Source: Bythopirellula sp.
GTDB lineage: Bacteria > Planctomycetota > Planctomycetia > Pirellulales > Lacipirellulaceae
Reading direction: 5' to 3'
Assembly: GCA_965216565.1 (NCBI GenBank)
Contig: OZ244170.1
Coordinates: 2,688,001-2,752,000 of the forward strand
DNA: 64,000 nucleotides
This document shows positions 19,275 to 27,201 of the stretch, in pieces. Each line of letters begins with the position of its first letter. Position 1 is the stretch's first letter. The translations under genes and the position numbers were made by a program. The notes under the pieces were generated by a model. That model did not search any database. It had not been told where the DNA came from and worked only from the letters and a program-made list of their open reading frames with translations.

Positions 19275-19367
19275 CCACACTTGCGACCAGCGTGCTCTCA
19301 TCAACATCCCTTCCAGATTGCCAATTGCCAATTGGCAATGGCCAAATTACAATCTGAAGTCCCACTT

Positions 19368-19440
19368 GCCCCGTTCGTCTAGTGGCCCAGGACACCGCCC
19401 TCTCACGGCGGAGACAGGGGTTCGACTCCCCTACGGGGTA
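19368..19440 (+). tRNA. tRNA-Glu(CUC)
   Basis: GCCCCGTTCGTCTAGTGGCCCAGGACACCGCCCTCTCACGGCGGAGACAGGGGTTCGACTCCCCTACGGGGTA; anticodon stem CCGCC/GGCGG, anticodon CTC. Confidence 0.96.
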
Positions 19441-20163
19441 TACTATAATCTTGTACAGCACTGCAAGTCGCGGCAGCTGGCGGTACTTGAGCCCTGTTTT
19501 CTTGGGGCTTTTTTACTTTCTTCACTTTTTTGCTTCCCTCTGCGCTCGAGTGCTGCGCCGTATTTTGCGGCCCTGTTATGACAGAAAGTGCGCCGCATTC
19601 TGCGCCGCTTTGATCGGGGTCGATTTCTAATGCTTTCGCAAAGTGATCATCCATCAATTGAAGGTAATGGCGGCTCGCGATGATTGCTGAGTTTCCGATC
19701 CAATCACAGACCACGTGCAAGGGATGCTTCTCTGTAAGTTCGGTCTCTCTGCTAGCCCGTAGGTTATGAAACAATTGTTCCCATGCCTTCACACCGGCTC
19801 GCCGGAGTATTATCTGAAACTGGGTGCGAAAACTCTGATTCTTGCACCGATATCGGTTGATCACAAACTCAGTTCCCGCCTTGGCCTGATCGAAAGCCGC
19901 CTCTAGGTAAGGACACATTTCAGGGAATAGGGGAAGAGTCCGATAACTGCCACCGGGAAGATGCTCAGTCTTGGGGCTCGGCACACTGATTCGGTTATTC
20001 TCCCAATCAACGTCTCCCCATCGTATTGCCAAGTGTTCGCTAGGGCACTCAGGCCACTGAAACGGCTCAGCACCACGATTAACTGCCATTCCACATCAGG
20101 ACAAGCGGCAAGCACTTTAGGTACGCTTCGATTCGATGGGCTACAATTATTTGGCGCTGACAT
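19403..20163 (-). pseudogene. Tyrosine recombinase/integrase remnant (frameshifted, N-terminally truncated)
   Basis: KVLAACPD.EWQLIVVLSRFSGL in one frame continues as CPSEHLAIRWGDVDW...KTEH...FHNLRASRETEL...WIGNS...HYLQ in another; abuts the tRNA-Glu 3' end. Confidence 0.85.
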
Positions 20164-23732: not shown

Positions 23733-24281
23733 TTAAATCTTGCCGTCCAAGCCCATTTGGTAGTACTTGTGGGTGATACTATCCTGGTTTTCCAGCAGCC
23801 AGTCGATGGAAGGTTCGTTATTCATCGCCTTGTGGATTGCTTGGGCCATTGCTTTGCGGTGAATTTCAAACAAGGCCTTGTGATCGAGATTGTCGTCGTC
23901 AACGACTCCGGGGTTGAGCCATACGCTGCAGATGATTCCCAGATCGTTGGCTTTTTCTTTTGGAATATCGCCTGCGCGGACCGCATCGAGCACACCATTG
24001 GCGATGGCCGCCTGGACTGTTCCCATCAAGATGTTGGTGTAACGCGTTTTCTTGACCGTGACTTTGCTGACGCAAAGCGTGACGGGGCGTACCTGAATAT
24101 CTGTATTAAGAATTGCAAAGACCTTCGAGTGGCCCATCGACTGATCGCCGGTGAGCGTCGCCAACGCCGTTCCGACGGGTCCGTCGAGTTCGCCGATAAC
24201 GACTTCAGGCTCGGCTGCGGTAAATGGAGGACCACCAGCTACTAAGGCCTCGCCGGAGCGAAATACGATGCGATCAGACAT
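23733..24281 (-). CDS. fae: Formaldehyde-activating enzyme (Fae) homolog, divergent paralog
   Basis: GEALV, IGELDGPVG, KVTV, GTVQAAIANGVLDAV, IPKEKANDL, EPSIDWLL. Confidence 0.85.
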   Translation of the reverse strand: MSDRIVFRSGEALVAGGPPFTAAEPEVVIGELDGPVGTALATLTGDQSMGHSKVFAILNTDIQVRPVTLCVSKVTVKKTRYTNILMGTVQAAIANGVLDAVRAGDIPKEKANDLGIICSVWLNPGVVDDDNLDHKALFEIHRKAMAQAIHKAMNNEPSIDWLLENQDSITHKYYQMGLDGKI

Positions 24282-24496
24282 GAATAAGACCATCCTTCAA
24301 GGTAAATTTGTGAACCAGTAACTGAGAACACAAATTTACACTCTGAAGGACGTGCTGAATACTGCCTACAAAACCCGGCAGGCCCGTGGTCTTGAATAAG
24401 TCGAATATCTGGCGAGTCTTTGAAGAAACTCGCCACACTAAGAATACACGGTGGCCAGCGCGTTGCGCGGGCCCGTTCATTCCGCCATGGCCGTCA

Positions 24497-25036
24497 CTAC
24501 TGTAGTTTCGCCACCGGAGGGAAATCAATTTCTGGGTCGGCAACGTGATTGAAGTAGTTCGTGAAGATATTTAACGCAACGTTGGCAACGATCTCTGCCA
24601 CCTCGCCGTCGGAGTAGCCTGCCGAACGCAGCTTAGCGACCGCTTCGTCTGTCGCATGGCCGCGCTCCTCAACTAACAGTTTTGCGAAATCCAAAGCCAC
24701 TGCGGCTTTTTCCTCACTAGCTGTGCCACGTCGGGCCGACTCCACCTCCTGGTCGTCCAAGCCGCTTTTCTTGCCAAGTGCCACATGGGCCGACAAGCAA
24801 TAGTCGCAACTGTTCGTCTCCGCGACAACGATTGAAATCTGCTCGCGTAGCTGGGCTGACAGTTTGCCTTTGGCCAGCGATTGGTTGAATCCAAAATACG
24901 CCTGAGCAACAGCGGGCGAATTCACCATGGCAGCAAAAATATTGGGAATGATTCCCATGTTCTTTTCAACCGTTTCCAGCACCTTCGCTTGTGATTCGTT
25001 GGCCGATTGTTTATCGATCAATGGCAGGCGAGACAT
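24497..25036 (-). CDS. AhpD/carboxymuconolactone decarboxylase family peroxidase-related protein
   Basis: IPNIF, REQISIVVAETNSCDYCLSAH (CxxC), NYFNH. Confidence 0.92.
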   Translation of the reverse strand: MSRLPLIDKQSANESQAKVLETVEKNMGIIPNIFAAMVNSPAVAQAYFGFNQSLAKGKLSAQLREQISIVVAETNSCDYCLSAHVALGKKSGLDDQEVESARRGTASEEKAAVALDFAKLLVEERGHATDEAVAKLRSAGYSDGEVAEIVANVALNIFTNYFNHVADPEIDFPPVAKLQ

Positions 25037-25083
25037 ATTGTTTTCTCCTATTCTACGGTGATCTGTATGTAACTAATAAGTTG

Positions 25084-25109
25084 GACGCGAAGACCCGCCA
25101 CAAACTTAC
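25084..25109 (-). promoter_or_regulatory. Candidate ECF-sigma promoter (copy 3) for the ahpD-like gene
   Basis: Minus strand GTAAGT-N16-CGTC, 47 bp upstream of the ATG. Confidence 0.7.
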
Positions 25110-25462
25110 GGCTCTTCTTCAAGCAGCCATTCTTGAAGGATTGCCGCGTGATTGTGCTGCATGTCTTTTGCTGCAAAAAGCAACGTTATCCGGGAATGTT
25201 CCGCGGCAGCAGCAAACGTCTCGTTTGCGTTCTGCTTCTGGCTATCCAACTCCGCCCGGTAACGTTCTGCGAACTCCTCAAACCTTTCTGGCTTATGAGA
25301 AAACCACTTTCGCAGCTCGGGGCTTGGTGCTAAATCCTTGGCCCACATTGCGAGGGCCGCCTGTTCGCGGCTGACACCACGCGGCCAGAGCCGATCGACG
25401 AGCACTCGGAACCCATCACCGGGGTCCGCGGACTCGTAGATGCGCTTCGTGACGATTTCCAT
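25106..25462 (-). CDS. DUF488/YeaO family protein
   Basis: KRIYE, DGFRVLVDRLWPRG, APSPELRKWFSH, ITLLFAAKD..HNHA. Confidence 0.92.
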   Translation of the reverse strand: MEIVTKRIYESADPGDGFRVLVDRLWPRGVSREQAALAMWAKDLAPSPELRKWFSHKPERFEEFAERYRAELDSQKQNANETFAAAAEHSRITLLFAAKDMQHNHAAILQEWLLEEEP

Positions 25463-25554
25463 CGAAAGCCCCCCTCCCCTTGTACGCCACGAAGGCCGCT
25501 TCAGCAGATTCAATCTGCCGAAGCGACCCCAATGGACTGGCTCTAGCAATTCTT

Positions 25555-26082
25555 TTAACCGCTCACCTTATTCCAATGGCGTTCGGCTTTTTTCAGATGC
25601 TCTTCTTGGTTTCCTTGGTTCCACAATTCGAGGGCGTCGACATTCTTGTTCTTCAAGAATAGCAACAGCTTGCCATCGACAATCTTAAAGCTACGCGGAT
25701 CGACGGGAAACTTATCTTCCACGGCCATGCCAAAAGCACACCAGCCGCCGTATGCCGGGATATACTTTCCCGGTTGCTTATCAAAAGCGGCTTTGGCGTC
25801 AGCGGAAACAAACTGGTACGTGACGCCCTGATGCGTCGACGTATATTCTGGTTTGCCCATGACAGGTTTGTTGACGGCGAAATACGCCACCGGACAGTAT
25901 CCTTCCAAGGCCAGCCCACTGCTCGGCAAGTTGTAGCTGTGCAGGTAGGCCTTTGATAGATCACGCTGCATTTTTGCTGCCTCAGTGCTTCCCGATTGGG
26001 CAACTGACTTTTCGTTGGCAATCCAAAGTGCCGATCCGGCCAGGGTGATAGCCGCTAAGGCGAGTGTCGTAAAACGTTTCAT
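25555..26082 (-). CDS. Secreted YHS-domain protein
   Basis: Signal peptide; GYCPVAYF, KYIPAYGGWCAFG, IVDGKLLLF. Confidence 0.88.
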   Translation of the reverse strand: MKRFTTLALAAITLAGSALWIANEKSVAQSGSTEAAKMQRDLSKAYLHSYNLPSSGLALEGYCPVAYFAVNKPVMGKPEYTSTHQGVTYQFVSADAKAAFDKQPGKYIPAYGGWCAFGMAVEDKFPVDPRSFKIVDGKLLLFLKNKNVDALELWNQGNQEEHLKKAERHWNKVSG

Positions 26083-26218
26083 TTTCATTCTCCAATTTGA
26101 TTGATCTGAGAAATTTCCAATGGCGCAAATCGCCGTCATTTCGCTGTGATAACTCTGCTTCTAGGGAGGGCCGCGATAGCGCTCTCGGCGGCACCTCATC
26201 AAGCCGGCATGGCTATTT

Positions 26219-26244
26219 GTCGCCCACACGACCGGAATCCTTAC
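26219..26244 (-). promoter_or_regulatory. Candidate ECF-sigma promoter (copy 2) for the YHS/DUF488 unit
   Basis: Minus strand GTAAGG-N16-CGAC. Confidence 0.7.
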
Positions 26245-26280
26245 CAAAAAAAACAATTCACTTTTCTTTGCAATTTTCAC

Positions 26281-26306
26281 GTAAGGTCGAGGCTTCCTTC
26301 GCCGTC
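26281..26306 (+). promoter_or_regulatory. Candidate autoregulatory ECF-sigma promoter (copy 1)
   Basis: Plus strand GTAAGG-N16-CGTC, 50 bp upstream of the sigma ATG. Confidence 0.7.
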
Positions 26307-26356
26307 CTATGAATTAGTCCAATTGCCCGCGCGTTATTCCATAGGTCAAATCTCGG

Positions 26357-26965
26357 ATGCTACCTTCCTACGAAGACTGGGTTCAGCGCCTTGAGCGCAA
26401 CAGTTCTCAGCGGGAACTTGCGCTAATGGAACTGCGAGAGCTTTTGTTGCTCCGATTGCACCACGCATTCCGGAACCAACCGGAGTTTAGTAGCAATCTC
26501 ATTGAAGATGTTGTTCAGGAATCTTTATTGAAGATTCTGAACAAACTTCACACCTTCGAGGGTCGCAGCCAGTTCCCCACCTGGGCGACCGCAATTGCCA
26601 TTCGGACGGCCTATTCCGAGCTACGCAAACGCGAGTGGAAAAACATATCGCTGGAGCAAACGCTCACTGAGTTCGACCAATCTCGTCTCGAGCCCGTCAG
26701 TGATTTGCCAGCTCCAGAGTTATCCAATGAGAAAGACGATCTGGTCGAAGCCCTCTACGAGTGCATCCACCTGGATTTGACCGTCAAACAAAAAGACGCC
26801 TTGTTGGCCGAGCTAAAAGGAATGCCTTTGGAGGAAATCGCCAGACGGCAGGGGAGCACTGTGAATGCCGTCTACAAACTCACGCACGATGCCAGAAAGC
26901 GTTTGAAGCTTAGTCTGGAAAACAACGGATACACGAGTGACGATTGGGCAGCAATGAGGACATGA
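26357..26965 (+). CDS. ECF RNA polymerase sigma-70 factor
   Basis: Region 2 EDVVQESLLK...FEGRSQFPTW; region 4 LEEIARRQGSTVNAVYKLTHDARKRL. Confidence 0.92.
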   Translation: MLPSYEDWVQRLERNSSQRELALMELRELLLLRLHHAFRNQPEFSSNLIEDVVQESLLKILNKLHTFEGRSQFPTWATAIAIRTAYSELRKREWKNISLEQTLTEFDQSRLEPVSDLPAPELSNEKDDLVEALYECIHLDLTVKQKDALLAELKGMPLEEIARRQGSTVNAVYKLTHDARKRLKLSLENNGYTSDDWAAMRT

Positions 26966-27201
26966 ATGAGATGAATCTAACTCGTCAACAGATCGATTCC
27001 TTACTGCTGATGCTTTCGCTGACAAGGTCGGAAGAACTCACTTGCGAGGAGTGCGCCCAGCTACTGGCCGAGTTTGCTGAGAGTAATCTCCAAGGACATT
27101 CTATTCCCGAGTATCTTCAGGCCGTGGAACACCACTTGGATCTCTGCAGCCAGTGCCGTGACGAGTTCGAAGCTCTGCTCGAGGCCCTGCATAGCAGCTA
27201 G
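26962..27201 (+). CDS. Small soluble zinc-binding anti-sigma factor (ZAS/zf-HC2-like)
   Basis: ATGA overlap with the sigma gene; CEEC plus HLDLCSQC (HxxxCxxC); no TM helix. Confidence 0.82.
   Translation: MNEMNLTRQQIDSLLLMLSLTRSEELTCEECAQLLAEFAESNLQGHSIPEYLQAVEHHLDLCSQCRDEFEALLEALHSS

Follow-up and report, generated by a model that had tools for sequence, protein, structure and literature searches.

In the SigR-RsrA pair of Streptomyces coelicolor and in SigH-RshA, assigned to group ECF12 among the sigma factors of extracytoplasmic function (ECF), the sigma gene is described as being followed by that of a small, soluble, single-domain anti-sigma factor of the CHCC type (PMC4960319, PMC3177212). 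We analyzed a locus of similar anatomy in a stretch of 64,000 nucleotides from Bythopirellula sp. (assembly GCA_965216565.1, contig OZ244170.1, positions 2,688,001 to 2,752,000; the whole stretch is hereafter called the window), where an ECF sigma factor and then a small Cys/His protein are encoded on the plus strand, and a YHS-domain protein, a DUF488 protein and an AhpD/CMD-family protein, in this order, on the minus strand. The original prediction, read from the letters of the window, had proposed a self-contained regulon for thiol, oxidant or electrophile stress behind three copies of a bipartite motif. The likeness to SigR-RsrA extends to an autoregulatory promoter with a CGT-type -10 box and to thiol-repair targets. 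However, the -35 box of SigR is of the GGAA type, while the element predicted here has GTAAGA and the sigma a YKLxHD recognition helix; the sigma reaches only 42 bits on the nearest SigR/H-like NCBIfam models (among the best 25 models), far under their cut-offs, the partner scores 13.7 on the RsrA model TIGR03988, whose cut-off is 62.5, and has a Cys-His spacing of 29/26, and the regulon appears small and local, made of YHS, AhpD-like and P460 genes, with a patchy distribution. ECF12 membership was therefore rejected on model scores. What we propose with moderate confidence is a switch similar to SigR-RsrA, in which promoters read by the sigma, a zinc anti-sigma factor and a redox trigger would control an output of thiol repair and oxidant removal; its promoter element, a real and conserved one by prediction, is well supported.

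The pattern GTAAGK-N16-CGWC has exactly three matches in the window (P1 to P3, Table 1), against a mean of 0.40 in shuffled sequences, and 0/100 shuffles reached three. All three sites, at exact spacing, fall within 1.2 kb, oriented towards the genes named by the original prediction, at distances of 50 nt (P1, to the sigma ATG at 26357), 130 nt (P2, YHS, 26088) and 47 nt (P3, AhpD-like, 25036) from the start codons, and P1 and P2 stand back-to-back, 36 bp apart. The window alone proves little, because the pattern was drawn from these same three sites, which makes the statistic post hoc, and because its 24 matches across the 5.2-Mb genome (~28 expected) are at chance level. The motif was judged real because of an independent test in other genomes, for which 142 loci with relatives of the sigma were gathered from planctomycete genomes, metagenome contigs and two plasmids; the window was left out and 103 loci were kept at <80% sigma identity (one of them, L002, nearly repeats L001, with a frameshift, and contributes at most 4 duplicate sites). 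Up to 2.5 kb from the sigma, GTAAG-N17-CGWC (the same spacing, counted from the pentamer) gave 86 matches in 58/103 loci, compared with 25 matches in 19/103 loci for N16 and 1-10 for each of the remaining 14 spacings (10 to 25). GTAAG is the top-enriched pentamer at that distance (111 observed vs ~11 expected), and a 70% identity cut (79 loci) leaves 67 N17 matches in 45 loci. The unseeded flanks are informative as well, with A after GTAAG in 81% (84 sites), G before CGTC in 77% and AA after CGTC in 64%/82%, and the family consensus reads RGGTAAGA-N15-GCGTC-nAA. At the -10 position CGTC (99 sites) is accompanied by CATC (28), CGAC (12) and CACC (9), and with this widened set a site is present in 81/103 loci. 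Strict same-strand sites lie within 400 bp upstream of the sigma in 24/88 orthologous loci, back-to-back pairs occur in 25/103 loci at inter-site distances of 26 to 85 bp, and motif-bearing loci are scattered over the whole quick tree of 77 sigmas. The GTAAGA -35 box is kept beside sigma relatives of Methylocystis and Nocardioides, with CATC and CACC-like -10 boxes; no covariation of the -10 variants with sigma2 residues or with the tree was seen, the tree being a quick one on which the labels did not cluster.

From the originally proposed GTAAG(G/T)-N16-CG(A/T)C, core and spacing thus hold, together with the orientation of the three copies, the -35 box that departs from GGAAC and the autoregulatory placement, the latter two borne out by the enrichment at orthologous sigma loci; the sixth base is a local variant of the family GTAAGA and the -10 box also takes the forms CATC and CACC. 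The motif scan suggested as a check bears the motif out at orthologous loci but not as a genome-wide count. When scored with a matrix built solely from orthologous loci, P1 to P3 are the top three sites of the window and rank 3rd, 5th and 9th genome-wide, with 17.1-19.2 bits against a higher family median of 23.1. None of the three has the consensus A following GTAAG, and the TAA in the GTAAGT of P3 is the stop codon of DUF488 (open reading frame (ORF) ending at 25106). These features, as well as the lack of a clean site in the closest relative (L152), would suit a motif family that is real, with copies in this genome that are decaying into a partly or wholly inactive relic. We regard such decay as very unlikely, as none of the five genes of the window locus is broken and all retain the conserved catalytic and metal residues, the three exactly spaced sites in 1.2 kb are joined by a distant pair, and G is the second commonest base at motif position 6 (21/148).

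The sites are very probably promoters of this sigma, judging from its recognition helix and from what happens to the motif where the sigma is missing. The window sigma has sigma2 and sigma4 domains above cut-off and no sigma3 match, as expected for ECF (group IV) factors, and its sigma4 recognition helix carries the clade signature N-A-x-Y-K-L-x-H-D-A-R, in which Y173 (101/104), K174 (103/104), H177 (100/104) and D178 (102/104) are nearly invariant; N[AS]xYK is found in 113 of the top 150 50%-identity representatives. In an alignment to the RSRIFR helix of solved RpoE-type sigmas, these four residues take the places of RpoE R171, S172, F175 and R176, the first three of which Todor et al. (2020) linked to bases -31, -34 and -32 (PMC7776599); the replacement of RpoE -35 specificity residues fits a -35 box other than GGAAC. 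For comparison we used 80 genomes that yielded no copy of the sigma. AhpD homologues have the motif within 250 bp upstream in 24/32 cases in sigma loci, and in 1/22 in sigma-lacking genomes, where the sole match overlaps the start codon. Among YHS homologues in sigma loci the motif precedes 15/31, YHS genes unlinked to the sigma still have it (L223, L230), and a homologue of the YHS subfamily is present in 14/42 sigma-bearing vs 1/80 sigma-lacking genomes. A site precedes 7/30 DUF547 homologues in genomes that have the sigma, five of these without linkage to it, vs 0/21 in sigma-lacking ones, the chance of a motif being 0.66% per 300 bp in this comparison. A sigma54-like box stands upstream of AhpD homologues in 11/23 cases in sigma-lacking genomes and in 0/32 in sigma loci, and the AhpD-type target is possibly wired there to a different, thiol-sensing regulator. 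Within this sigma-lacking set (L195-L218), several of the sigma54-boxed AhpD genes face a large divergent gene whose product is similar to a GAF/sigma54 activator and has an N-terminal region rich in Cys.

Several observations weigh against this assignment. Even with the widened -10 set, 22/103 loci carry no site, among them L152, the closest relative; many of the 22 are short contigs and some are not. The widened set was picked after viewing the sigma loci, which favors them in the AhpD and DUF547 comparisons, and the Fisher values of the sigma-bearing vs sigma-lacking comparisons overstate significance, as related genomes are non-independent. Moreover, the YHS gene of sigma-lacking G536 has a motif site, and in G407, where no clade sigma was found, a perfect GTAAGA...GCGTCTAA site (L238:1282-1309) lies 12 nt before an unrelated ECF gene with a membrane-type partner. 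The last two cases would be expected if the motif were read by another protein, either a different ECF sigma of equal specificity or a dimeric transcription factor bound to the inverted CTTAC...GTAAG arrangement that P1 and P2 form together. We hold such a reader for unlikely, though a shade less so than decay of the copies: the distance between back-to-back sites varies over the 25 loci, unlike in an operator, whereas that between -35 and -10 does not, most sites stand singly and have a direction, and the motif is lost upstream of AhpD and DUF547 where the sigma is missing. The G407 sigma itself has a single weak match in the genome of the window, without a motif, and convergent specificity is a possible explanation of its site.

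In order to define the targets, the first ORF after each of 123 strict sites was taken and clustered (small clusters and singletons include spurious frames). The most frequent were the sigma itself (28), YHS (17), AhpD-like (17) and cytochrome P460-family genes (10), followed by thioredoxin (4) and DUF547 (2); among the singletons, 10/15 tested had a Pfam match, and those identified include a molybdopterin oxidoreductase, a rhodanese, AhpC/TSA, an FMN oxidoreductase, a subunit of ferredoxin-thioredoxin reductase and a DUF417-YHS fusion. Where 2 kb were available on both sides (n = 64 loci), the anti-sigma gene was present in 61, AhpD in 27, YHS in 26, P460 in 16 and DUF488 in 8, and MsrAB and Grx-TrxR genes were found nearby in sigma loci. 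The genes that follow strict sites support the redox-type target set, spanning cytoplasm and periplasm, of the original prediction. Its description as self-contained is probably too strong, because 0.7 Mb away in the genome of the window back-to-back sites at G000:C1:3411310 (-) and 3411463 (+) precede a DUF547 and a Crp/Fnr gene, and the DUF547 site recurs in sigma-bearing genomes. For Crp/Fnr a site was present in 2/17 sigma-bearing vs 0/13 sigma-lacking cases (30 best loci). No large regulon was detected by the matrix scan of the window's genome, in which 14 sites exceeded 16 bits vs 5-11 at wrong spacings; its top match, G000:C1:166548 (-), was rejected as it lies antisense within a 1668-aa ORF. 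Across genomes, the strict consensus has 48 matches in 25/40 sigma-bearing and 12 matches in 11/40 sigma-lacking genomes, and since the rest are near the level of the reversed-pattern control, there is no sign of a large global regulon. The regulon is thus probably small and mostly local, and the sigma seems to act locally, on few targets, and to be inherited in a patchy manner.

The small Cys/His protein is, with high confidence, the anti-sigma factor of this sigma, given its place and its residues. A gene for it stands beside the sigma in 98/103 loci, typically encoding 70-90 aa. As originally described, the window partner (78 aa) is soluble by prediction, with CxxC plus HxxxCxxC and no hydrophobic segment; in the family a hydrophobic window was seen in only 1/99 sequences, HxxxCxxC is present in 94/98 orthologues, and C27 (99/99), C30 (83), H57 (98), C61 (97) and C64 (96) are conserved (numbering counted from position 26965, an alternative start at 26962 overlapping the sigma stop). 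A profile of 15 partner sequences matches the zinc-associated anti-sigma (ZAS) domain of RsiW (5wuq) at E 0.0024 and RsrA at 0.63. Granted the promoter and anti-sigma roles, we consider thiol oxidation of the RsrA type fairly likely to be the main trigger, by analogy. According to the RsrA work of Rajasekar 2016 (PMC4960319), the N-terminal zinc Cys is needed for oxidative release, and this, together with the invariance of C27, favors redox sensing. The partner also agrees with that work in being soluble by prediction, with no added sensor domain. Other features of the partner count against it: its scores stay below the cut-offs of Pfam zf-HC2 and TIGR03988, and the invariant Cys lies 29 residues from the His, with only the less-conserved C30 inside the textbook distance of 23-26 (Cys at both 29 and 26 in 76/99 rows). 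The redox determinants that Jung 2011 gives for RsrA, acidic residues before CxxC and a Leu plus a charged residue after it (PMC3177212), are only partly present, as the family reads H-L-(S/A/E)-(I/V)-C-x-E-C-R-E, with R then E after CxxC, and the window partner, H-L-D-L-C-S-Q-C-R-D, departs from that pattern. The family mostly lacks the flanking acidic residues, which weakens the case for redox sensing.

These partial determinants, and the fact that thioredoxin follows only 4/123 strict sites, leave room for the same wiring with a narrower trigger, which may be reactive nitrogen (for instance NO or hydroxylamine), reactive chlorine, displacement of zinc by a thiophilic metal or metalloid, or else regulated proteolysis. 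Cytochrome P460-family proteins handle hydroxylamine or NO, and their genes are a major target, present in 19/103 sigma loci and with an own site in 12/26 genes; they often stand in tandem (L128:6483-7663, L081, L111, L074, L073 and others) and may be of either the P460 or the cytochrome c'-beta type. A DUF417-YHS fusion (L084:3815-4705 (-), under a motif site) and an RclA/MerA-like flavoprotein were also found in the loci, and the distant DUF547 locus adjoins DUF3179 and two GT2 glycosyltransferases, one of them TIGR04283-like (below cut-off). We nevertheless give such a trigger clearly less credence than general thiol oxidation, since no P460 gene occurs in this window, the invariant CHCC and the Cys-dependent targets (AhpD CxxC, YHS GxC, thioredoxin, AhpC/TSA) fit thiol chemistry with any oxidant, and all the agents listed act on zinc-thiolates, so that a narrower trigger refines the proposed switch more than it excludes it.

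The switch analogous to SigR-RsrA would then operate as follows. In the resting state the partner would bind the sigma and hold zinc via C27 (or C30), H57, C61 and C64. On linking the N-terminal Cys to the CxxC motif, a disulfide would expel the zinc and free the sigma, as in RsrA, and RNA polymerase with this sigma would start transcription a few bases past the CGWC box. Firing of P1 would provide positive feedback along with fresh anti-sigma factor, P2 would yield the exported YHS protein and DUF488, P3 the cytoplasmic AhpD-like reductase, and the distant DUF547 promoter would probably be fired as well, so that oxidized thiols could be repaired and oxidants removed on both sides of the inner membrane.

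Table 1 Predicted promoters and genes of the sigma locus (window positions) and the distant locus with a motif pair
Feature	Position	Strand	Basis
P1, predicted promoter of the sigma/anti-sigma operon	26281..26306	+	-35 GTAAGG, -10 CGTC
P2, predicted promoter of YHS then DUF488	26219..26244	-	-35 GTAAGG, -10 CGAC
P3, predicted promoter of the AhpD-like gene	25084..25109	-	-35 GTAAGT, -10 CGTC
ECF sigma factor, 202 aa	26357..26965	+	PF04542 + PF08281; TIGR02937 69.7 > 42.9
CHCC-type zinc anti-sigma candidate, predicted soluble	26971..27201	+	Cys/His motif, place beside sigma
YHS-domain (seleno)protein family, Cys form	25555..26088	-	NF041384 115 > 70 bits
DUF488 protein, best match DUF488-N3i	25106..25462	-	domain match
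AhpD/CMD-family protein, N-x-C-x-Y-C-x-x-A-H	24497..25036	-	PF02627; TIGR00778 51.8 > 27.8
DUF547 exported protein / Crp/Fnr regulator (distant locus)	G000:C1:3410383-3412310 = L241:6384-8311		motif pair between

The gene identities given originally for the sigma, YHS, DUF488 and AhpD-like proteins agree with the Pfam/NCBIfam scores. The YHS protein, with a signal-peptide-like N-terminus, is predicted to be an exported thiol-redox protein. It has Cys in the place of the Cys/Sec of the GxU motif, and this GxC cysteine is kept in 20/20 homologues, which is what a redox-active residue would show. The YHS family (GxU) is tabulated in a selenoprotein review together with the TIGR01926 AhpD-like family (CxxU) and DUF3179 (PMC13188914). 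The AhpD-like protein scores 81.3 bits on TIGR01926 (AhpD-like peroxidase-related enzyme; cut-off 81.8) and, with C77 (34/37), C80 (32/37) and H84 (33/37) conserved among its homologues, is a predicted cytoplasmic thiol-dependent reductase. DUF488 is probably co-transcribed with YHS from P2; its homologues have an own upstream motif in 1/14 cases, and in orthologous loci holding a copy it mostly stands directly after the anti-sigma gene.

The sigma clade is large and multi-phylum. It is patchily distributed in 19/400 genomes of the phylum, 42/400 of the order and 6/14 of the genus, and the system is not confined to the planctomycetes, the setting of the original prediction, as clade members occur in Methylocystis and Methylocella, in Nocardioides and among Anaerolineae/Chloroflexi proteins. 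At least 7,205 protein clusters lie within E 1e-40 of one Chloroflexi-type member, and the neighbor clusters in the Atlas comprise Planctomycetota, Verrucomicrobiota, Chloroflexota, Acidobacteriota and Actinomycetota. Viral contigs yielded no clade sigma, and their 120 pattern matches, with none of the window's proteins nearby, were treated as chance. Sigma relatives of Streptomyces and Nonomuraea (L192, L193, L194), possibly an ECF125-like sister branch, have neither a ZAS gene nor a clean motif; TetR genes accompany those of Streptomyces, and msrA and a CMD gene lie near one.

Among the described groups, ECF271 provides the best label, by description and taxonomic overlap and not by a hidden Markov model score. 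In the description of Casas-Pastor et al. 2021 (PMC7826278) it has a soluble zinc-finger anti-sigma factor at +1 and occurs mainly in Chloroflexi plus Acidobacteria, which overlaps with the Anaerolineae/Chloroflexi relatives and the Chloroflexota and Acidobacteriota clusters found here; ECF270/ECF271 are listed under 'unknown mechanism' in PMC8999054. The predicted promoter published for ECF271 (GCTGCTG / GXTCA) differs from the GTAAGA footprinted here, with -10 GCGTC-nAA loosely similar; the former is itself a prediction, and our footprint excludes Chloroflexi loci. That group description gives no conserved gene context and lists no Planctomycetes, in contrast to the conserved target set of the present loci. 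ECF293 (Neisseria sigmaE, formerly ECF13/101/117), compared by description only, likewise has a soluble zinc-finger anti-sigma factor at +1, with DUF417 in one subgroup, and is described as regulated by conformational change and as mainly found in Proteobacteria, Bacteroidetes and Actinobacteria. SigF of ECF16 (Caulobacter, Bradyrhizobium) is said in its descriptions to share a GTAA-type -35 and a CGT-type -10 box (GTAACC-CGTA) as well as oxidative or metal stress, but its anti-sigma factor is a six-transmembrane DUF1109 protein, unlike the soluble ZAS-type partner of this locus. CMD/AhpD genes adjoin some subgroups of ECF41, which, as described, has a fused SnoaL extension and no anti-sigma factor, whereas the 202-aa sigma has no such extension. 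ECF125, ECF127, ECF213, ECF16 and ECF41 were rejected, as glyoxalase, Rieske or membrane anti-sigma factors, or the SnoaL extension, in their group descriptions do not agree with the anatomy of the locus. The 'self-contained regulon' of S. coelicolor SCO3450, as summarized in 10.1101/247056, belongs to ECF01 and is thus another system.

Among literature listings and abstract openings no study of the present switch came up, and the predicted motif may stand in earlier planctomycete ECF classifications. GTAAG is absent from the compared text of the Casas-Pastor 2021 supplement (PMC7826278; tables S1-S5 lay outside the comparison), from eight supplementary files of Todor 2020 (which may give motifs in matrix form), from the papers listed on ECF promoters of this kind and from the portion of PMC7671368 that was compared. 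The architecture of an ECF sigma, a zinc anti-sigma factor and thiol-repair genes is textbook, and specialists would find it unsurprising. New here are a promoter with strong footprinting support and a regulon, both for an ECF clade filed in reviews under 'mechanism unknown' and in a phylum with many ECFs and few known targets. Several points become directly testable in E. coli: YKLxHD with GTAAGA as a new pair of amino acids and bases in the specificity code of ECF sigmas, the sensing of disulfide stress by a ZAS without the acidic determinants of RsrA, and a stress context for YHS, DUF547, DUF488 and non-nitrifier cytochrome P460-family proteins. More speculatively, and with real doubt on our side, a promoter and a regulon may have been defined here for the first time in an unstudied, very large ECF clade of several phyla (ECF271 or a sister), in which a re-coded helix reads GTAAGA and a minimal CHCC anti-sigma factor couples cytoplasmic thiol sensing to a periplasmic YHS/DUF547/P460 kit; if true, it would amount to a joint response to reactive nitrogen and chlorine, YHS, DUF547 and orphan P460 proteins would gain their first functions, and an orthogonal pair of sigma and promoter would become available.

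Some further features lie in or near the locus. A gene for a formaldehyde-activating enzyme (fae, 23733-24293 (-)) is located downstream of the AhpD-like gene, at a distance of 200 bp, and the genome contains another fae elsewhere; the copy in the window is not preceded by a motif and no fae homologue was found in orthologous sigma loci, so that fae was rejected as a regulon member and the formaldehyde link of the original prediction is unsupported. In 12/103 loci a gene of the uracil-DNA glycosylase family is found near the sigma (e.g., L001:2768-3352). The GC content across the module is not anomalous; about 4.5 kb from it lies a probably partial ORF of the phage-integrase family (19403-20089 (-), PF00589, 228 aa), adjoined by a stretch near 19310-19400 that is tRNA-like by appearance only. 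Between YHS and DUF488, there is a near-perfect inverted repeat (25487-25513) that lacks a T-run and might influence read-through or the stability of the mRNA.

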